From positions 352,001 through 416,000 of the forward strand of contig CAVVHS010000006.1 in NCBI GenBank assembly GCA_963748215.1: 64,000 nucleotides of DNA, given 5' to 3'. The position numbers and the translations under genes are program-made. Under the pieces are notes generated by a model. That model had not been told where the DNA came from. It ran no database searches and saw nothing but the letters and a program-made list of their open reading frames with translations. Numbering within the stretch: the stretch's first letter is position 1; the number at the start of each line of letters is the position of its first letter. Shown one piece after another: positions 1 through 30,385 of the stretch. This DNA comes from an uncultured Gammaproteobacteria bacterium. GTDB taxonomy: Bacteria; Pseudomonadota; Gammaproteobacteria; UBA9214.

Positions 1-1051
1 CAGGCTTGCACGGGCACCACGCCAGTTGTCGATGTGGTACTTGGTGAACGGCAGCCCGGTCTTCTCGAAGAAACGCGGCCAGCCGATACGCTCGATCCAG
101 TCGTTGATACGCTCCCAGTCCTTGGCGTCTTCCTTGTAGACCTTGAGGATCTTCTTGACGACGGCGGTGGCTTCCGGCCAGCGCGGCGGGTTGTTCGGGA
201 TGCCGGAGGCGACCAGCTTCTGGAAGGTCGGCTTGCCGCGGGCATTGGAGTGGTTGCCGCCCACCCAGATGGCCAGCTTGGAGTGCTCGGCGTCGTTGAT
301 CTGCATCGGCGGGCAGGGCGGGTAAGCAGGCACCGCAGCAGATGCACTTCTTCTCGTCGACTTCCAGCGACGGCTTGCCGTTGACCAGTGCCGGGCGAAT
401 GGCCGCGACCGGGCAGCGTGCCACGACCGACGGACGCTCGCAGACGTTGGACAACCAGGTCGTGGTTGATCTTCGGCGGCTTGGTGTGCTGCACGTTGAT
501 GGCGATGTCGCCCTGGCCGCCGCAGTTGATCTGGCAGCAGGAGGTGGTCATGTGCACGCGGTTCGGCATGTTCGCAGCCTTTGAACTCGTCGATCAGCTC
601 GTCCATCATCGACTTGACCACGCCGGAGGCGTCGGTGCCCGGGATGTCGCAGTGCAGCCAGCCCTGGGTGTGCGACATCATGGCGACGGAGTTGCTGGGT
701 ACCGCCGACGACGAAGCCGGCATCTGTCAGCGCCTTGATCAGCGGCTCGACCTTGGCCTCGTCGGACACCATGTATTCGATGTTGCTGCGAATGGTGAAG
801 CGCACATAACCCTCGCCGTAGGTGTCACCGATTTCGCACAGCTTGCGCAGGGTGAACAGGTCGAGGATACGCTGGGTGCCGGCGCGCACGGTCCAGATCT
901 TGTCGCCATTGTTGGCAACGTGCAGCAGGACGCCGGGCTGCGGATCTTCGTGATAGGCCCACTGCCCGTAGTTCTTGCGCATTACCGGGTGCATGTACTG
1001 GAATCCGTCAGGACATCCGGATTCGATCGGCGAACGCATTTCTTGTGCCAT
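1..1051 (-). CDS. dsrB: Dissimilatory sulfite reductase beta subunit (oxidative/reverse type); 3' end outside window; about four apparent +1 frameshifts
   Basis: N-terminus MAQEMRSPIESGCPDGFQYMHP. Reading across frames gives HTQGWLHCDIPGTDASG, TTSCCQINCGGQGD, KKCICCGAC and WIERIGWPRFFEKTGLPF. Extra bases near 695, 575, 452 and 324. Confidence 0.95.
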
Positions 1052-1090
1052 GTGATTCTCCTGAAAATCTCTTCAAGTTTTTGAACAAAT

Positions 1091-1110
1091 CCCGGCGTTT
1101 GTACGCCGGG
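1091..1110 (-). other. Intercistronic hairpin between dsrA and dsrB
   Basis: cccggcgt-ttgt-acgccggg: perfect 8-bp stem with 4-nt loop. Confidence 0.5.
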
Positions 1111-1138
1111 GTTGTCATATATGAACGGGTTGACCGGC

Positions 1139-2405
1139 TTACGCGGAGGCAGCCTGCTCCTCGGCCTTGCGCTCGAACCACTTCTCGGCTTCTTCGTCCC
1201 AGCCGTCCATGCGGACGTAGGAAGACTGGCGCGGGTTGCTGACCATGTTCGGGTCCACCTCGACGCCGATGCCTTCGAGGAAGTTGACCAGACCGATACG
1301 CTCGATCATTTCACCGCAGCGCTCGTGCTCCAGGCCGTTCTCGGCCCAGAAGTCGATGATCTCCTCGGCCATTTCACTGCAGGCTTTCGTAGTCTTCCTC
1401 GGTTTCCAGCTTCTTGAACGGGACCACCACGGTACCCATCAGGTCGCCGATCTTCAGCGTGCGCTTGCCGCCGATCAGGATGGTGACGCCCTTGTCGTCG
1501 CCCGGGTGCAGCGCCTTCGGCATGACGTTCAGGCAGTGCATGCAGCGCACGCAGTTCGTGGTTGTCGACGGTCGATGGTGTCGTCGTCGTTCAGGGTCAG
1601 GGCCTTGGTCGGGCAGCGGGTGATGACGTTGTCGATCACGTACTGACGGCCTTTCTTGCCGACGTAGTCCTTGACTTCTTCCTGGTCGACCTTCATGTCG
1701 TCGCGCCAGGTGCCGATGACGGCGAAGTCGGCGCGCTCGATGGCGTTCTGGCAGTCATTCGGGCAACCGGAGACCTTGAACTTGAACTTGTAGGGCAGGG
1801 CCGGACGGTGCACGTCGTCGGTGAAGTTGTTCACCAGCCAGCGCTGGATGCCGTGCTCGTTGGCAGCAGGACATTTCGCAGCGCGCCGCACCGACACAGG
1901 ACATGGCGGTACGCACGCACGGGCCGGCACCACCGAGATCCCAGCCGTACTCGTTGATTTCGTCGAAGAAGTGCTGGGTGTTTTCGGTGGTGGTACCGAT
2001 AAACATGATGTTGCCGGTCTGGCCGTGGAAGGTCACCAGGCCGGAACCCCATTTTTCCCAGCTGTCGCCGAGCTGGCGCAGCATGTCGGTGGTGTAGTAG
2101 TTGCCGGCCGGCGGCTGCACGCGCAGGGTGTGGAATTCCTTCGATTCCGGGAAGGCCTTGCCGACTTCGGAGAAGCGCGGGATGATGCCGCCGCCATAGC
2201 CGTAGACACAGACGGTGCCGCCTTTCCAGTAACCCTTGCGGGTTTCGTAGGAGTGCTCGAGCTGACCCAGCAAACCGTTGGTGACGTCGTTGATGCGTTC
2301 GTCCGGGTGCTCGTCACGCAGCCGCTTGATGCCGGTGATGAAGCTCGGCCAGGGGCCGTTCTCGAGTTCGTCCAGCATGGGAGTCGGGTAGGTGTTCTTG
2401 GCCAT
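1139..2405 (-). CDS. dsrA: Dissimilatory sulfite reductase alpha subunit (reverse type); about four apparent +1 frameshifts
   Basis: MAKNTYPTPMLDELENGPWPSF, CVGAARCEMSC, YKFKFKVSGCPNDC, CVRCMHC and ERCGEMIERIG spread over ORFs 1755-2405, 1529-1933 and 1139-1372. Extra bases near 1864, 1571, 1558 and 1378. Confidence 0.96.
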
Positions 2406-2600
2406 GGCAATAATCTCCTGGATTGTTTTCTACACCAATTGGTTTGCTACTGATGACAGCGCGCGCTGTCGCCCTGCCGGGCAACTGGAAATCAGCGAGT
2501 TATACGGAATTACAACAGCGTAACTCTCAGTTGAGCGCATTGTAGAAAGGCTCTGCGGGTATACATATCCTACCCTTGGGGTGGCGCCTATATGGGCCCG

Positions 2601-2616
2601 TATCCCGAACGGGGTA
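2601..2616. promoter_or_regulatory. Candidate palindromic regulator site (7-2-7, NarL-like) upstream of dsrA
   Basis: TATCCCG-AA-CGGGGTA. Putative dsrA -10 TACAAT on the minus strand at 2539-2544. Similar site at 4856-4871. Confidence 0.35.
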
Positions 2617-2764
2617 TTGGCAGAATATTGATTTAATTTCCGGTAGTTATCAGAGTTGCCCGGATTTACTAATGCGTACAGAACTTTTTCTTATATTAAC
2701 GCGCACTTAAGTAACCCTTTCTCAACCGGAGAAACGGGATTGCCGGTGTGATTTCAGCTATTTA

Positions 2765-2783
2765 GATGAGAATCACTCTCATT
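2765..2783. promoter_or_regulatory. Fur-box-like operator
   Basis: GATGAGAATCACTCTCATT, a near-perfect ATGAGAAT-n-ATTCTCAT Fur-type palindrome about 110 bp upstream of the TauD-like gene. Confidence 0.65.
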
Positions 2784-2890
2784 AGCAATTGGCCGCCGGC
2801 AGCGCAGGCAAGTCCCGGCCCCATGTATTAAACATTTAAGTGTGACCGTAAGATACAGGCTCCTGAAAAACCGGCCCGTCGCACAACTCC

Positions 2891-3835
2891 ATGATACACA
2901 GTCCAGACAGCTTTCGACCCTTTGACCTTGCCGGCGATGCCGACTACCGGGTCTGGCGCGCGTGGAAGCTGGATGGCTACCCCGTGGCCGCCGCCGACCT
3001 GATTGTGGACGTCGGCGATCCGGCGCACCTGTCAGCGGCCGAGCATGCGGCGATCCTGGCGCGCTGCCGCAAGGCCAATATGGCGATTTATGCCGTCCGG
3101 GGTGGTGGTAGCGCGGACAAGGAGGCGGTGCGCGCACTGGGCAGGCAGTTCGGGCTGGAACGTCTGGACATGAACCTGCGCGCCGACGAGGACAGCATCA
3201 CCGCGTTGCGGGTGGTACCGGAATCGGCGGGGACCCGTTACATCCCCTACACCAACCGGCCGCTGAACTGGCATACCGACGGTTACTACAACACGCTCGA
3301 CGAACAGGTGCGGGCCATCCTGATGCACTGCGTGTCCGCCGCGGCCAGCGGCGGCGAGAGTGTGCTGTTCGATCACGAACTCGCCTACCTGTTGCTGCGT
3401 GACGAGAATCCGGATTACATTCGCGCGCTCATGCAGCCGGACGCCATGACCATCCCGGCCAACATAGAGGACGGCCGGCAGATCCGCGGCGCGCAATCCG
3501 GTCCGGTCTTTACGGTTGAAAAGGGTAGCAACGCCCTCCATATGCGTTATACGGCACGCACCCGCAGTATCGAGTGGAAGGACGACCGGGACGTGCGCAA
3601 TGCCATCGAATTCCTGCGTGAATTGCTGGACAGCGACCTGCCCTGGATCTTCCGGCACCGGCTGCAGGCCGGACAGGGCATTATCTGCAATAATGTACTG
3701 CACAGGCGCGATGCCTTTGACGACGCGGCGGGTGACGGACAGGCCCGGCTGCTGTACCGGGCGCGTTATCACGACCGGATCCGCGCGACCGTCGCCGACA
3801 ATGATTTTTATGGAGACAGGCAATGCTGTGGTTGA
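2891..3835 (+). CDS. TauD/TfdA-family Fe(II)/2-oxoglutarate dioxygenase
   Basis: HxD motif (NWHTDGYY), distal H and R (NNVLHRRDAF), C-terminal RLLYRARY. Confidence 0.8.
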   Translation: MIHSPDSFRPFDLAGDADYRVWRAWKLDGYPVAAADLIVDVGDPAHLSAAEHAAILARCRKANMAIYAVRGGGSADKEAVRALGRQFGLERLDMNLRADEDSITALRVVPESAGTRYIPYTNRPLNWHTDGYYNTLDEQVRAILMHCVSAAASGGESVLFDHELAYLLLRDENPDYIRALMQPDAMTIPANIEDGRQIRGAQSGPVFTVEKGSNALHMRYTARTRSIEWKDDRDVRNAIEFLRELLDSDLPWIFRHRLQAGQGIICNNVLHRRDAFDDAAGDGQARLLYRARYHDRIRATVADNDFYGDRQCCG

Positions 3836-4014
3836 GCGAAGTGCTGATACAGCAGCATGACATCGAGTCCTTCGAGGCCCTGAAGCAGGCCATCAGCGCG
3901 CGTGCGCGCGGCGGCGAGATCCATTTCCGCATGGATGTGCGTCCGCCGTTTCCCGATACACCCGAAGACTGGGAAGACCGGCTGGAAGCGGCCTTCTACT
4001 CGACAGGCAATTAA
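3823..4014 (+). CDS. Small acidic conserved protein (63 aa) of dsr-associated regions
   Basis: Overlaps the upstream stop, has a GGAG RBS, motif MDVRPPFPDTPEDWEDRLEAAF; resembles small proteins recalled from sulfur oxidisers. Confidence 0.7.
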   Translation: MLWLSEVLIQQHDIESFEALKQAISARARGGEIHFRMDVRPPFPDTPEDWEDRLEAAFYSTGN

Positions 4015-4026
4015 CCCCGGCGGTCA

Positions 4027-4725
4027 ATGACAAGCATGTTCTGGAACGACGAAAAGCAGAAAGCACCGGACTTCGTGATCCCGGATGACGTCGTCGACCT
4101 GGCGTTCAGGATCGGCTGCCCGACACTGCCGCTGGATCACGCCCATGCCCTGTCGCGAGCCCTGCTCGAGGTCCTGCCCTGGCTGGATGACGAGCCGCAT
4201 GCCGGCGTCCACCTGATTCACGGTGCCGCCTCCGGTAACGGCTGGTATCGCCCCGAGGATGCCGCCAGCGAGCTGCTGCACCTGTCGCGGCGTACCCGCA
4301 TGCGCCTGCGTGTGCCCAGGCATCGCCTGGAGGATGCGCGCAAGCTGACCGGCCGGCGGCTCGATATCGGCGGCCATCCGCTCGAAGTCGGCGACTCGGA
4401 GGTTTTCCTGCTGAGCAGCCTGTCGACGCTGTTCTCGCGCTACGTCATGACCGGGGCCGACACCGATGAACAGGCCTTCCTGGAGGAGGCCACGCGTGGG
4501 CTGCAGGCCATCGATATCGATTGCCGCAAAATGCTGGGGGGCATCAGCCATGCTCTGCAGTTCCCGGACGGACCGGTACACACCCGCAGCCTGATGGTGG
4601 CGGATCTCGAGCCGGAGCAGTCGGTGCGACTGCAGCAGCTCGGACTGGGCGAGGGGCGCAGCATCGGCTGCGGCCTGTTCCTGCCGCACAAGGGCATCAA
4701 GCCGGTCAACGACGCAAAGGAATAG
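4027..4725 (+). CDS. cas6: Orphan Cas6-family (Cmx6/type I-MYXAN-like) RAMP endoribonuclease
   Basis: N-terminal VDLAFRI..TLPLDHAHAL, internal VHLIHG and RLRVP, C-terminal G-rich loop LQQLGLGEGRSIGCGLFLP (GhGxxxxxGhG). Confidence 0.85.
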   Translation: MTSMFWNDEKQKAPDFVIPDDVVDLAFRIGCPTLPLDHAHALSRALLEVLPWLDDEPHAGVHLIHGAASGNGWYRPEDAASELLHLSRRTRMRLRVPRHRLEDARKLTGRRLDIGGHPLEVGDSEVFLLSSLSTLFSRYVMTGADTDEQAFLEEATRGLQAIDIDCRKMLGGISHALQFPDGPVHTRSLMVADLEPEQSVRLQQLGLGEGRSIGCGLFLPHKGIKPVNDAKE

Positions 4726-4952
4726 CCTTGTCGGTCAGGCGCTGTCCCGGGCGAGGCCTGCCATTCCGGTGTTGCGCGATAAATACCTGCCCGCGCGGCT
4801 GAGACCCGCCAGGACAGCCGGCAAACCGTCGTATAAGGAAACGCACTTCGGCCGGCTTCCCATATGGGATATGTTCGGTGCTCGGGCAACTGGCTATAGT
4901 TGCGCTTATTCAATAATTTACAACGACTTGACTCGCATCCGGAGAGAAGATC

Positions 4953-5156
4953 ATGAGCAATAAACAGGAACTGATCGCCAAACTGCTGGAAATGCAGAAG
5001 AAATTCATCGATTACGAGCATGCCAATGGCGTGGAGATGAAGGACTACTTCGCCGCCGATGAAGGCCATCCACTGAAGGGCTTCCGCCAGGAATACACGG
5101 ACCTGGCTAACCAGCTGGTCGACATCGCGCACACCGAAAAGGGTTCGCATCGCTAG
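4953..5156 (+). CDS. Small hypothetical protein (67 aa)
   Basis: Clean ORF with GGAGAG RBS, followed by a terminator. Confidence 0.75.
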   Translation: MSNKQELIAKLLEMQKKFIDYEHANGVEMKDYFAADEGHPLKGFRQEYTDLANQLVDIAHTEKGSHR

Positions 5157-5173
5157 TCAGGCGTAATAGCAAT

Positions 5174-5209
5174 AAAAAGCCGCATTCCGAAAGGGTGCGG
5201 CTTTTTTTT
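5174..5209. terminator. Rho-independent terminator, probably bidirectional
   Basis: aaaaa-gccgcattcc-gaaa-gggtgcggc-tttttttt. Confidence 0.85.
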
Positions 5210-5234
5210 GGCGTGACCTCTAAGGCCAGTAGCG

Positions 5235-5410
5235 GCCACAGAGGGCACAGAGTACACAGAGAAAAATCAAATCAGAAAATGCCTGGCCGACACTCGGCAC
5301 CTTTGTCTGCAGGCGGCCGGGTTACCACCGGAATCCCGTGCCTTGCACCGCTGGTGACAGCTTACGCGGAAGATATGAAATAATTCTGTGAGCTCCGTGT
5401 TCTCTGTAGC
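5235..5410. repeat. MITE/REP-like element with 27-bp imperfect terminal inverted repeats built from (nnCACAGAG)x3
   Basis: gccacagagggcacagagtacacagag at 5235-5261 versus the reverse complement of 5384-5410 (gctacagagaacacggagctcacagaa): 20/27 identical. Confidence 0.6.
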
Positions 5411-5445
5411 GACTGTTTATTGAATGACGGCTTGCCCGTCCGGAG

Positions 5446-5790
5446 TCAGTACCCGCCCTTGCGCAGGATGAATGGCAGACCGGCGATCCGGTTACCCTGC
5501 TTGCTGGGGGCGAAGGGGAACAGTTCAAAGAGTTCCTTGCTGCTGACTTTCTTGTCCCAGATCTTGGCCATGCTCTTGTTGATCACCCGCTCCATGGGCT
5601 GTGAGCCGTTGTTATCGAAGTATTCCGAGCGCAGGTAATTCAGTACATCGAAATGCGCCTCGGTCAGCTCGATACCTTCCTTGGCGGCCAGTGCTTTCGC
5701 AACATCCTCATCCCAGGCGGTCGGGTCGGTGAGATTGCCGTTCTCATCCAGTTCGATGCTCTTGCCGTTTACGTCCAGTGCCATTTTCAT
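5446..5790 (-). CDS. DsrC/TusE-family protein lacking all cysteines (RspA-like)
   Basis: DENGNL.DP..WDEDVA..LA..EGIELTEAH, LFELFP..PSKQG.RIAGLP; ends RKGGY instead of the Cys-containing tail. Confidence 0.85.
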   Translation of the reverse strand: MKMALDVNGKSIELDENGNLTDPTAWDEDVAKALAAKEGIELTEAHFDVLNYLRSEYFDNNGSQPMERVINKSMAKIWDKKVSSKELFELFPFAPSKQGNRIAGLPFILRKGGY

Positions 5791-5998
5791 GCTCCTGATT
5801 CAACTTGAGAAAAGAATTTTGAGGCGGAATTGTATTGCAATACAGCCGTCATCGGAAGAGGTGCGAACACGACCCGGTATGCATTTTACAGGCATTCCAC
5901 AGGGTATTTTCCCGTGCCACAACGCCTGGACGATGTCTTCAGGGAAGCCGGATGTGCGGATAAAATACCCGTTCCGAAAATTGATCGATGGCTGACAC

Positions 5999-6508
5999 AT
6001 GCGTATTCGGGAATTCACCCTGCCAGACCCGGCGGCACTCAACGAGCGTCTGTATGCCCGGTTTCTGGAATTATCCGGCACCGACCGGATCAGGCAGACC
6101 CATCATTTTGCCGGCCGTTTCGAGAACACCTACATCGCCGCGGCTGACATACCGGAGATTGCCGCGGTTCTGGATGTGTTCCGGCAGCAGGCCGCGCAGT
6201 GGCTGGACGTTGCCGCGGATACGCTGAAGGCCGGGTTCTGGTTTAACGCCATGGGACCGGGGCACGTGACTTCACCGCATCACCACGACGAGAACGACGA
6301 GCTCCTTTCGGCGGTGTACTACATCCGCGTACCCGCAAACTCCGGCGAGTTGATCCTGTACGACGACGATACGCCGGTCACCGTGCGGCCGGAAGAAGGC
6401 AAGCTGGTGATGTTCGGTCCTGATGTGATGCACGAGGTGACGGTCAACAACAGCCCGGAGCTGCGCCTGTCTGTCGGCATGAACATCGGGCCGGCTGATG
6501 CGGAATAG
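5999..6508 (+). CDS. 2OG-Fe(II) oxygenase-like protein
   Basis: WFNAMGPG, HxH, LSAVYYIRVP, PEEGKLVMF..MHEV..N..RLSV.MNI. Confidence 0.75.
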   Translation: MRIREFTLPDPAALNERLYARFLELSGTDRIRQTHHFAGRFENTYIAAADIPEIAAVLDVFRQQAAQWLDVAADTLKAGFWFNAMGPGHVTSPHHHDENDELLSAVYYIRVPANSGELILYDDDTPVTVRPEEGKLVMFGPDVMHEVTVNNSPELRLSVGMNIGPADAE

Positions 6509-7446: not shown

Positions 7447-8118
7447 TCAGACATCCGACCACATGCGCACCAGGTTGATGTAGGACTGGTTGACCTGCAC
7501 GGTTTCCGCTGCGTCCGGTCTATCATGCAACAATACCTCGCGTGCCTGGTTCAGGTCGTGCAGCAGCGCGCGGCGGTCGGGTTCGCGCACCAGGCTCTGT
7601 ATCCAGCTCACGGCGACCAGGCGTTCGCCGCGGGTGACTTCGGCGACGCGGTGGATGCTGGAGGAGGGGTAGATCACGGCGTCGCCGGCCGACAGCTTGA
7701 CCTGCTGGTCGCCGAACGGGGTCTGGATGCATAGCTCGCCGCCATCGTAGTCCTGCGGTTCATTCAGGAAGATCGTTACCGACACATCGGACCGGTACAG
7801 GTCACCCTGGCCCATGATCGGGTCGTCGACATGATTACCGTAGGCCATGCCGGGCAGGTAGCGGGCGTAGTAGGGCGTGGCGGTCTTGCGTGGCATGGCT
7901 GCGCTGCGGAATACCGCATGCCGGACCAGGCTGCCCATCACCAGGTTGTTGAGTTCGCTCATGCGTGCCGGGTCCAGCGCCAGTTCCTCGTTCAGCTTGA
8001 CGCGCCGTGCCGCCGTACCGGCAGAGCCGCGGCCGTCACCGAAGCGTCCGCCGGCGATCAGCCGTTCGACGGTATTGAGTTGCGAGCGGTCGAGCACGCC
8101 CTCTATACGGGTGAGCAT
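7447..8118 (-). CDS. PKHD-type Fe(II)-dependent hydroxylase (PiuC/YbiX family)
   Basis: YGNHVDD, RSDVSVTIFLNEPQDYDGGEL, YPSSSIHRV, WIQSLVR, NLVRMW. Confidence 0.9.
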   Translation of the reverse strand: MLTRIEGVLDRSQLNTVERLIAGGRFGDGRGSAGTAARRVKLNEELALDPARMSELNNLVMGSLVRHAVFRSAAMPRKTATPYYARYLPGMAYGNHVDDPIMGQGDLYRSDVSVTIFLNEPQDYDGGELCIQTPFGDQQVKLSAGDAVIYPSSSIHRVAEVTRGERLVAVSWIQSLVREPDRRALLHDLNQAREVLLHDRPDAAETVQVNQSYINLVRMWSDV

Positions 8119-29705: not shown

Positions 29706-29781
<76 letters not shown>

Positions 29782-29823
29782 AAATTGTCCCGGGCGCCCG
29801 TGTTGCCCTGGTCAGCGTCACAG

Positions 29824-29900
29824 GTCCCCATCGTCTAGTCGGCCTAGGACACCGCCCTTTCACGGCGGTAACAGGGGTTCGAATCCCCTTGGGGACGCCA
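29824..29900 (+). tRNA. tRNA-Glu(TTC)
   Basis: GTCCCCATCGTCTAG...CTTTCAC...GGTTCGAATCCCCTTGGGGACGCCA. Confidence 0.96.
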
Positions 29901-30367
29901 TAAACCAAAAGGCCCGCTATTGCGGGTCTTTTGGTTTATCACCTCGGGAGGGGATGAGAACCCCGGGTTCGAGCCGAGCCACGCCAGGCGTGGCGAGACA
30001 ACAACGCCGCAGGCGTTGGCCCCGCAGGGGTGAGGCGCGCAGCGACGAATAATCCCCTTGGGGACGCCATAAACCAAAAGGCCCGCTATTGCGGGTCTTT
30101 TGGTTTATCACCTCGGGAGGGGATGAGAACCCCGGGTTCGAGCCGAGCCACGCCAGGCGTGGCGAGACAACAACGCCGCAGGCGTTGGCCCCGCAGGGGT
30201 GAGGCGCGCAGCGACGAATAATCCCCTTGGGGACGCCATAAACCAAAAGGCCCGCTCTTGCGGGTCTTTTGTTTATCACCTCGCGAGGGGATGAGAACCC
30301 CGGGTTCGAGCCGAGCCATGCCAGGTGTGACAGGACAGCAACGCTTCAGGCGTGGCCCGGCAGGGAT
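29882..30367 (+). repeat. tRNA-Glu-derived tandem repeat, 169-bp unit, about 2.9 copies
   Basis: aatccccttggggacgcca at 29882, 30051 and 30220, each followed by a terminator hairpin; third copy degenerate. Confidence 0.92.
29902..29937 (+). terminator. Rho-independent terminator, repeated in each 169-bp unit
   Basis: aaaccaaaaggcccgc-tatt-gcgggtcttttggttt. Confidence 0.8.
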
Positions 30368-30385
30368 GAACTCTGGCTCGAAACA

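Follow-up and report, generated by a model that had tools for sequence, protein, structure and literature searches.

The stretch of DNA analysed here, a window of 64,000 nucleotides (nt) from an uncultured gammaproteobacterium, encodes a Cas6 protein next to the sulfur-oxidation genes dsrA and dsrB. The best explanation of our results is that this Cas6 has left the immunity conferred by CRISPR (short palindromic repeats that are clustered and regularly interspaced) and has turned into a constant component of an accessory module belonging to the oxidative (reverse) Dsr pathway in Gammaproteobacteria. The module comprises five genes, for a TauD-like protein, a protein of 63 amino acids (orf63), Cas6, a DsrC-like protein devoid of C-terminal cysteines and a protein of 67 amino acids (orf67), and is conserved in divergent orientation from dsrAB. 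The positions of these genes in the window are as follows.

1–1051, minus strand: dsrB, extending beyond the window start, its frame disrupted by single extra bases near 323, 453, 574 and 696
1139–2405, minus strand: dsrA, in three frames, with single extra bases at about 1376, 1555, 1573 and 1861
2891–3835, plus strand: TauD/TfdA-family Fe(II)/2-oxoglutarate oxygenase (PF02668, E 5.7e-24)
3823–4014, plus strand: orf63, conserved protein of 63 amino acids, no family matched, found in 77 of 80 loci
4027–4725 (probable true start 4036), plus strand: Cas6/Cmx6-family RAMP (repeat-associated mysterious protein) without a CRISPR link (PF09559, TIGR02807, fold model)
4953–5156, plus strand: orf67, conserved protein of 67 amino acids, no family matched, downstream in 65 of 80 loci
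5446–5790, minus strand: DsrC/TusE-family protein without the C-terminal cysteines (PF04358, E 9.3e-32)

The layout agrees with the first-pass annotation of the window, a reading of its letters alone, which had described a TauD-like gene, an overlapping frame of 63 codons and a cas6 gene 12 nt further on, the whole lying back-to-back with dsrAB. The tauD-like frame and orf63 overlap by 13 nt, the first base of the cas6 frame lies 12 nt past the end of orf63, and dsrA and dsrB occupy the opposite strand. The cas6 open reading frame encodes 232 amino acids; its homologues comprise 228–232 residues with an N-terminus at residue 4 of this frame, so that 4036 is the likelier start. The protein matches the Pfam Cas6 family PF09559 with an E-value of 1.8e-64 and 217.7 bits (cut-off 26.7), and the NCBIfam model TIGR02807 (cas6_cmx6, the type I-MYXAN Cas6/Cmx6) with 143.3 bits (cut-off 98.85). 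A profile built from six members of the family matched one solved structure, PDB entry 8fcj_B, the Cas6 of the Cascade of a type I-B CRISPR-associated transposon (CAST), at E 1.2e-21. An AlphaFold2 model calculated with 76 homologues as input (pLDDT 88.3, pTM 0.84) has the double ferredoxin-like RAMP fold of solved Cas6 proteins. Foldseek placed 8fcj_B as the top match to this model, with template-modelling (TM) scores of 0.77/0.81 and an E-value of 2e-17, and returned 5yi6, 3pkm, 3i4h and Cse3, from archaea and bacteria, as further matches. The profile matches and the modelled fold together therefore identify a real Cas6 by sequence and fold, and the product of the frame 4027/4036–4725 is a true RAMP protein of the Cas6 family, in its Cmx6 branch. 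The first-pass annotation had proposed a Cas6-like RAMP protein with a DH motif and a GLGEGRSIGCG loop, had suggested a search against Cas6/Cmx6 profiles as a check and had named the lack of a RAMP fold as grounds for rejection; both motifs are present, both profile scores exceed their cut-offs and the modelled fold matches that of 8fcj_B.

In an alignment of five dsr-linked and three CRISPR-linked Cas6 sequences, D34-H35, R92, P94, R135 and the loop residues G203, G205 and G211-C212-G213 are invariant, with D34-H35 positioned immediately ahead of helix 1. H35 and the glycine-rich loop show no variation in 76 of 76 dsr-linked Cas6 proteins and are also retained in six members that are deep-branching, come from reduced genomes or stand alone. 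In other Cas6 enzymes this histidine cuts the RNA and the glycine-rich loop holds it, and by analogy H35 is the putative catalytic histidine of the window protein. The main dsr-linked clade has further invariant residues of its own, namely H59, S66, G69, W70, P73 and the C-terminal H218-K219. The first five of these surround an inserted loop of the clade, SGNGWxRPE, in the region of residues 59–75, which is modelled with low confidence and is absent from the deep-branching members. Within the genus the ratio of nonsynonymous to synonymous substitution rates (dN/dS) of cas6 has a median of 0.18 (range 0.08–0.31, 120 pairs), and Cas6 is under purifying selection.

The host assembly comprises 3.52 Mb in 9 contigs and is 95.3% complete. 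PF09559 matched one gene only in this genome, and six-frame searches of the whole genome returned no Cas1, Cas2, Cas7/DevR or Cas5 and no Cas3 above the cut-off, the only Cas3 matches being three sub-threshold helicases. The companion cas set of type I-MYXAN/I-B was thus not found, cas8/cmx8 and cas4 not having been searched for separately. Tandem Repeats Finder (TRF) and Rfam detected no CRISPR-like array within the window. A k-mer scan for spaced exact 20-mers with at least three repeats flagged 17 places in the host genome; no CRISPR array was found genome-wide, the seven places with at least four copies being whole-period tandem repeats and the ten three-copy places being uninspected. Four tandem arrays of the host genome that are not CRISPR (C6:196676-197077, C6:841445-841798, C9:63833-64219 and C9:65387-65636) consist of units of 63–78 bp in 4–7 copies with 87–97% match, some with internal inverted repeats. 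Among 24 other genomes of the genus Cas6 was found in 22 and Cas1 in one, as a partial match. The first-pass claims that the window holds neither a CRISPR array nor cas1, cas2, cas3, cas5 or cas7, and that Cas6 is independent of CRISPR, are upheld by these searches, and its homologues do not follow type I CRISPR loci, the contrary outcome that the annotation had named.

Members with a CRISPR link were found on seven cyanobacterial plasmids, whose Cas6 proteins are 26–31% identical to that of the window. In all three plasmids inspected the gene is the first of an operon with the order cas6-cas3-cmx8 (or cas8a1)-cas7-cas5-cas4/cas1 (or cas1); cas2 is present in two of the three, and the third stretch ends inside cas4/cas1.

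The association with dsrAB is conserved well beyond the window. In each of 16 loci fetched from relatives, among them three genomes from other families, cas6 is flanked by further genes of the module (tauD, orf63, orf67, the DsrC-like gene), although the module is just partial on the 4.8-kb contig of genome G026. dsrA or dsrB is visible in 14 of the 16 loci, and in the other two the contig ends first. A scan of one genome per species yielded 557 stretches encoding a Cas6 relative, of which the best 80, with 46–94% identity, provide the counts out of 80 given here. They include Thiohalobacter thiocyanaticus, whose strain Hrh1 carries the module, Thiogranum, Sulfuricaulis and Acidiferrobacterales. 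Every one of the 70 loci that could be judged has dsrA upstream of cas6 on the opposite strand; in the remaining ten the contig ends within 2.4 kb upstream of cas6. A TauD-like gene is found upstream of cas6 in 77 of the 80. The DsrC-like gene follows cas6 directly in the same orientation in 62, the arrangement of most other genera, and is inverted in 14, the variant to which the genus of the window belongs. An additional gene of roughly 235 codons (230–240), for which Pfam has no family, is inserted between orf63 and cas6 in 14 of the 80 (for example L029:8034-8750, L030:9295-9981 and L034:1562-2290); tblastn gave no match to it in loci of the genus of the window. Two of the loci, L051 and L053, with Cas6 72–73% identical, are titled "Halobacteria archaeon" in public records and are probably mislabelled.

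From the class, 401 genomes were drawn evenly over families with at least 90% completeness requested, and DsrA was scored by TIGR02064 at E 1e-20 or better. Cas6 and DsrA were each detected in 126 genomes, 121 having both, five Cas6 only, five DsrA only and 270 neither; given the even draw, the resulting 31% is a share of sampled lineages and not of species. The kin in this sample are not independent, with Cas6 matches spanning 95 genera, and G295, one of the five genomes with Cas6 only, is flagged as unpublished. Two genomes with a size of about 1.1 Mb and a GC content of 34% carry all five module genes next to dsrAB, and in three deep-branching genomes dsrBA faces cas6, followed by the DsrC-like gene, a gap and tauD; the DsrA and Cas6 of the deep-branching members are 57–60% and 35–38% identical, respectively. 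A sample of 401 genomes at the level of the phylum contained Cas6 in five, all of the same class, and the three new matches among them are all dsr-linked; since this draw differs from that of the class, it says little about reverse Dsr outside the class. Over 63 loci the pairwise distances of Cas6 and DsrA correlate with r 0.77 (Mantel test, 0 of 999 permutations as high), with Cas6 evolving about 2.6 times faster than DsrA. The neighbourhood survey that had been suggested as a check thus shows a linkage to dsr that is conserved. With a true Cas6 that is independent of CRISPR and conserved in its link to dsr, none of the outcomes named by the first-pass annotation as speaking against its reading was found.

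These counts also bear on the reading that the protein is an ordinary CRISPR Cas6, serving an array and effectors missed elsewhere, or the remnant of a decaying type I system beside dsrAB by chance. Annotation pipelines label the protein type I-MYXAN Cas6/Cmx6 and the equivalog cut-off is passed, the assembly is only 95% complete and CRISPR arrays often assemble poorly, and the ten uninspected three-copy repeats leave some room for an array. The host genome, however, has none of Cas1, Cas2, Cas5 and Cas7 and no Cas3 above the cut-off, Cas1 is found in one of 24 genomes of the genus as opposed to 22 for Cas6, and cas6 with its neighbours is retained even in genomes of 1.1 Mb. Moreover, DsrA accompanies Cas6 in 121 of 126 Cas6-bearing genomes over 95 genera, the dN/dS of 0.18 indicates constraint, and the identity to CRISPR-linked members is just 26–31%. 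We regard an ordinary CRISPR Cas6 as highly improbable, and this reading as already close to refuted.

Every member of the family keeps H35 and the glycine-rich loop, and RNA binding has therefore most likely been retained. Cas6 would in that case still bind, and perhaps cut once, a specific structured RNA by means of H35 and the glycine-rich loop, and would act post-transcriptionally on messages for sulfur oxidation, be it the mRNA of the dsr operon or that of its own operon. By analogy with the known enzymes, we consider recognition of a specific structured RNA and action after transcription on these messages to have a little under an even chance of being correct. The broader proposal, that the whole clade now serves the oxidative Dsr pathway as a dedicated factor, free of CRISPR, which binds or cuts RNA, is inherited together with dsrAB across Gammaproteobacteria and persists even in genomes of 1.1 Mb, is put forward a little more tentatively. 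The sites that could serve as targets or control elements of the module are listed below; where no strand is given, none was assigned.

1091–1110, minus strand: GC-rich stem-loop of 8 bp with a 4-nt loop in the dsrA–dsrB spacer (–17.3 kcal/mol)
2539–2544, minus strand: putative –10 box (TAnAAT) of the dsrA promoter, with flanking triplets invariant in 20 of 20 genus sequences
2569–2584: M1, imperfect palindrome around CCC-TT-GGGG, about 45 nt upstream of the putative dsrA start
2601–2616: M2, palindrome TATCCC-N4-GGGrTA, about 76–77 nt upstream of the putative dsrA start
2768–2786: Fur-like box, 14 of 19 positions matching the consensus, 123 nt upstream of the tauD start
4856–4871: half-palindrome akin to M2, TCCC-N4-GGGATA, conserved in the genus

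Two hairpins had been proposed as Cas6 targets by the first-pass annotation. The one in the dsrA leader is a perfect palindrome of 16 nt at 2455–2470, but its fold is at the level of chance (z –1.15, 29 of 200 shuffles folding as well) and the palindrome is kept solely in the closest relatives, so that this candidate is not supported. The hairpin at 1091–1110 is real, with a z of –4.54 and none of 200 shuffles as stable, but is conserved as a structure only. The dsrA–dsrB spacer (1052–1138 in the window) contains a strong GC-rich stem in most relatives and genera, with differing stem sequences, which suggests a structural role such as stabilization of the transcript or differential expression of dsrA and dsrB. 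A CRISPR-like hairpin repeated across the dsr operon was considered and rejected, as of 14 matches in the genome only that at 1091 of the window lies in the dsr region.

The spacer between dsrA and tauD contains a block conserved in the genus at about 2560–2715, within which M1 and M2 are located. Outside the genus M1/M2 were detected in 20 of 55 spacers. As RNA, M2 folds with a z of –2.63 on the plus strand and –0.83 on the minus strand. The related site at 4856–4871, a pattern with one match in the window versus 0.07 expected, lies 23 nt upstream of a TATAGT box (4895–4900) ahead of orf67 and about 44 nt from the putative start of that transcript, a spacing like that of M1. A promoter scan of 900–6000 reported no sigma-70 site at its thresholds, and the promoters are therefore placed by conservation alone. 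As a motif of a whole regulon M1/M2 were rejected, since the M1 core occurs a single time in the host genome and the one other M2 site is inside a CopG antitoxin gene on contig 9 and is therefore a chance match. M1/M2 cells changed on both sides number 6, compared with 2.8 in shuffles (11 of 500). As nearly all pairs are invariant, covariation cannot distinguish an RNA hairpin from a DNA operator. From their sequence and placement, the conserved palindromes are more likely to serve as operators, read by a DNA-binding regulator that belongs to this module, than as RNA elements. The shared TCCC-N4-GGGrTA of M2 and the orf67 site suggests an activator-type operator common to the dsrA and orf67 promoters. 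The reader of the palindromes is possibly the DsrC-like protein, because DsrC of Allochromatium vinosum reportedly binds DNA upstream of dsrA, a finding said to be that of Grimm et al. in 2010.

Alternatively, Cas6 itself might read M2 and the 4856–4871 site, either as DNA or as hairpins of nascent or antisense RNA, and thereby control transcription of dsrA and of the module. The two TCCC-N4-GGGrTA sites lie within 2.3 kb of each other, with 23 such sites at up to two mismatches in 3.5 Mb, and both are conserved in the genus, M1 and the orf67 site lying about 44 nt and M2 about 76 nt from the putative starts. The module encodes no classical transcription factor, and the better fold of M2 as plus-strand RNA (z –2.63) would suit such a reader. 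On the other hand, in most of the genus the left half of the 4856–4871 site reads CTGCCC, which prevents it from folding into a hairpin, and M1/M2 occur in 20 of 55 non-genus spacers compared with a near-universal Cas6. The DNA binding reported for DsrC would make the DsrC-like protein the likelier reader, and we know of no Cas6 protein that binds double-stranded DNA. Reading of the palindromes by Cas6 thus appears quite unlikely.

A Fur-like box was sought with a 19-nt consensus. The 14 of 19 matches at 2768–2786 are reached by none of 100 mononucleotide shuffles, and 18 of the 21 spacers of the genus have their best match (12–15 of 19) at 91–144 nt ahead of the tauD start. Beyond the genus the best match averages 11.3, compared with 11.2 in shuffles. 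The description of the operon as Fur-boxed is therefore only partly apt: the Fur-like box is conserved in position within the genus and is not a feature of the module. The first-pass suggestion of a co-opted Cas6 is thus supported in part: its Cas6, its independence of CRISPR and its link to dsr stand, processing or stabilisation of dsr transcripts is at most a possibility, and the 2455–2470 hairpin and the Fur box as a module feature are not supported.

Expression was judged from Logan contigs of metatranscriptomes, which match in small shares (at most 0.12) and carry no strand, ends or levels, uncovered parts being uninformative. RNA-library contigs cover dsrA heavily, with the cover summed over many organisms, and one piece extends 97 nt upstream of the dsrA start codon. 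Short pieces of low depth with 2–6 differences correspond to tauD/orf63 (3675–3869), orf67 (4969–5162) and the DsrC-like gene (5534–5783). Since carry-over of DNA is possible, these contigs are weak as evidence of expression.

Several of these results, together with exceptions to the linkage, weigh against Cas6 as an RNA-directed factor of the Dsr pathway. The M1/M2 region is nearly without covariation, with 89.8% of cells paired as opposed to 89.1% in shuffles and 29 of 500 shuffles as high. A site resembling M2 lies 117 nt upstream of dsrA in a genome that has cas6 elsewhere, and on the promoter placement proposed above M1 and M2 would lie upstream of both divergent transcripts. The stem of the dsrA–dsrB spacer is missing in low-GC lineages that keep Cas6 (e.g. 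L077, L082, L098 and L119), and the 1091 hairpin is not repeated elsewhere in the dsr operon, one of its 14 genome-wide matches being in the dsr region. The covariation analysis of M1/M2, the examination of the dsrA–dsrB hairpin and the search for repeats in the dsr operon thus revealed no RNA target of Cas6, and the RNA data are neither strand-specific nor end-resolved. The tauD-orf63-cas6 group lies far from dsrAB in genomes G074 and G378, cas6 lies alone and far from dsrAB in G151 and G304, and G424, one of the genomes with Cas6 only, has a solitary cas6. Finally, the residues that are invariant in this clade alone could mark a new function off RNA.

Such a function would put the RAMP fold to a new use within the sulfur relay of Dsr, where it would serve as partner, chaperone or adaptor and act on or with the other proteins of the module; an example would be an oxygen- or iron-dependent modification of the RKGGY tail of the DsrC-like protein, or its delivery to DsrAB. 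The adjacency of Cas6 and the DsrC-like gene is the most persistent of all, being found in 76 of 80 loci, in three of three deep-branching and in two of two reduced genomes, and several Fe(II)/2-oxoglutarate oxygenases are constant neighbours. The invariant His, Ser and Trp residues, the inserted loop and the C-terminal HK of the clade also speak for such a role, as does the failure of the covariation, hairpin and operon-repeat surveys to find an RNA target. A complex prediction for Cas6 with orf63 and the DsrC-like protein scored 0.26 relative to a mark of 0.32 and gave no verdict. Against a role off RNA stand the histidine ahead of helix 1 and the glycine-rich loop, marks of RNA binding and cutting that show no variation in a gene under strong purifying selection, and to our knowledge no Cas6-family protein has a role outside RNA. 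We consider this role the main rival, though less likely than not, and retain action on sulfur-oxidation messages as the working proposal.

The DsrC-like protein lacks the C-terminal cysteines that characterize DsrC proper. In all 75 aligned DsrC-like module proteins the C-terminus is RKGGY, at the place where DsrC has its redox-active cysteines. The TauD-like protein scores far under all equivalog cut-offs. The invariant residues of orf63 are D38, P41, D45-T46-P47, W50, E55 and F58. Pfam searches at E-values up to 10 returned no family for orf63, orf67 or the inserted gene of 238 amino acids, and for orf67 the Atlas contained unnamed clusters only. The possibility that orf63 is a fragment of DsrC was raised by Atlas clusters named "putative sulfur relay protein DsrC", but BLASTP found nothing and hhalign gave a probability of 0.5%, and it was rejected. 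Two further oxygenase genes adjoin the module.

5999–6508, plus strand: small 2-oxoglutarate-Fe(II) oxygenase, a neighbour within this genus
7447–8118, minus strand: Fe(II)-dependent dioxygenase of the PKHD/YbiX type, often a neighbour (61 of 80 loci have it within 9 kb)

The reading frames of dsrAB in the window are interrupted. Compared with four relatives the two genes contain eight single extra bases, and the dsrA match falls into two pieces with four TGA codons inside, whereas the stretch from tauD through the PKHD-type gene has zero frameshifts. RNA-library contigs are without the extra bases at 1376, 1556, 1574 and 1863. Further single-base indels affect dsr genes that lie immediately beyond the window, upstream of it on this contig. 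The broken frames are probably an error of assembly or polishing in a highly conserved gene; conceivably, the dsr operon is instead decaying to a pseudogene in this one organism. The comparative case for the link between Cas6 and dsr does not depend on these frameshifts. Elsewhere in the window, positions 29706–30369 hold two tRNA genes and, behind them, a 169-bp tandem repeat (2.9 copies at 95% match), which Rfam reads as two RtT RNA copies.

The oxidative Dsr pathway ranks among the main routes by which sulfur is oxidised in sediments, oxygen-minimum zones and chemosynthetic symbioses. The genes usually counted in it are dsrABEFHCMKLJOPNRS, and the five-gene companion module accompanies dsrAB nearly as faithfully as the known dsr genes do, Cas6 being its most recognisable member. 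CRISPR biology gains here a clean example from nature of a Cas6 without an array, Cas1, Cas2 or an effector, and for sulfur microbiology the module points to candidate regulators or accessory factors. Presence in a dsr-linked gene set suggests some housekeeping job for this Cas6; we know of no earlier housekeeping metabolic role for a Cas6 enzyme, and if true this would be the first. It would also reveal a hidden layer of post-transcriptional control, with cysteine-less DsrC-like and TauD-like proteins, in a major route of sulfur oxidation. Because pipelines label these genes "type I-MYXAN CRISPR-associated", sulfur oxidisers will be miscounted as carriers of CRISPR-Cas components.

Post-transcriptional effects on the dsr operon of Allochromatium vinosum have reportedly been ascribed to DsrR and DsrS, again by Grimm et al. 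in 2010. No description of a link between Cas6 and dsrAB was found in the literature searched, subscription papers and supplements being outside reach. The accessible parts of PMC10952691, PMC5728499, PMC3150331, PMC12669027 and PMC8477390 do not describe a dsr-linked Cas6, and the words Cas6 and CRISPR are absent from the last of these, a paper on Dsr classification. On the catalytic residues of cyanobacterial Cas6, the available portion of Reimann et al. (PMC5741207) contains nothing useful. The DsrC/TusE/RspA family name and its cysteine criteria are taken from the part of PMC8477390 that is open to view, and in these terms the DsrC-like protein of the module is a member of the family, but one that has no C-terminal cysteine and ends in RKGGY.

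The closest known relatives of the window protein are the Cas6 proteins (Cmx6) of type I-MYXAN and type I-B systems, with which it shares the same Pfam and NCBIfam families and the two-domain RAMP fold (8fcj_B, TM 0.77/0.81). The DH motif before helix 1 is common to three cyanobacterial plasmid Cas6 proteins, 8fcj_B having DN in its place, and the G-x-G...GCG glycine-rich loop is common to all four. However, the window Cas6 is only 24–31% identical to these proteins, the dsr-linked clade does not have the insertion of the cyanobacterial Cas6, and the SGNGWxRPE loop and the C-terminal HK are its own. CRISPR-linked Cas6 proteins are encoded among cas genes, whereas the fixed neighbours of the window Cas6 are dsrAB and the TauD-like and DsrC-like genes. 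According to PMC12669027, a classification paper of 2025, the Cas6 of most type III systems is supplied in trans, which resembles the present case in that the cas6 gene lies apart from effector genes; those genomes, in contrast, hold arrays and effectors, neither of which was found here. Reuse of Cas proteins outside adaptive immunity is also seen in Tn7-like CAST, type IV and "Cascade-only" systems, but these keep a multi-subunit complex guided by CRISPR RNA, in contrast to a single Cas6 within a metabolic cluster that has no Cas7, Cas5 or guide array. A protein that is a Cas6 by sequence, fold and motifs, yet is accompanied by neither an array nor companion cas genes, is therefore understood as belonging to a Cas6 clade that was taken over into a metabolic gene cluster.

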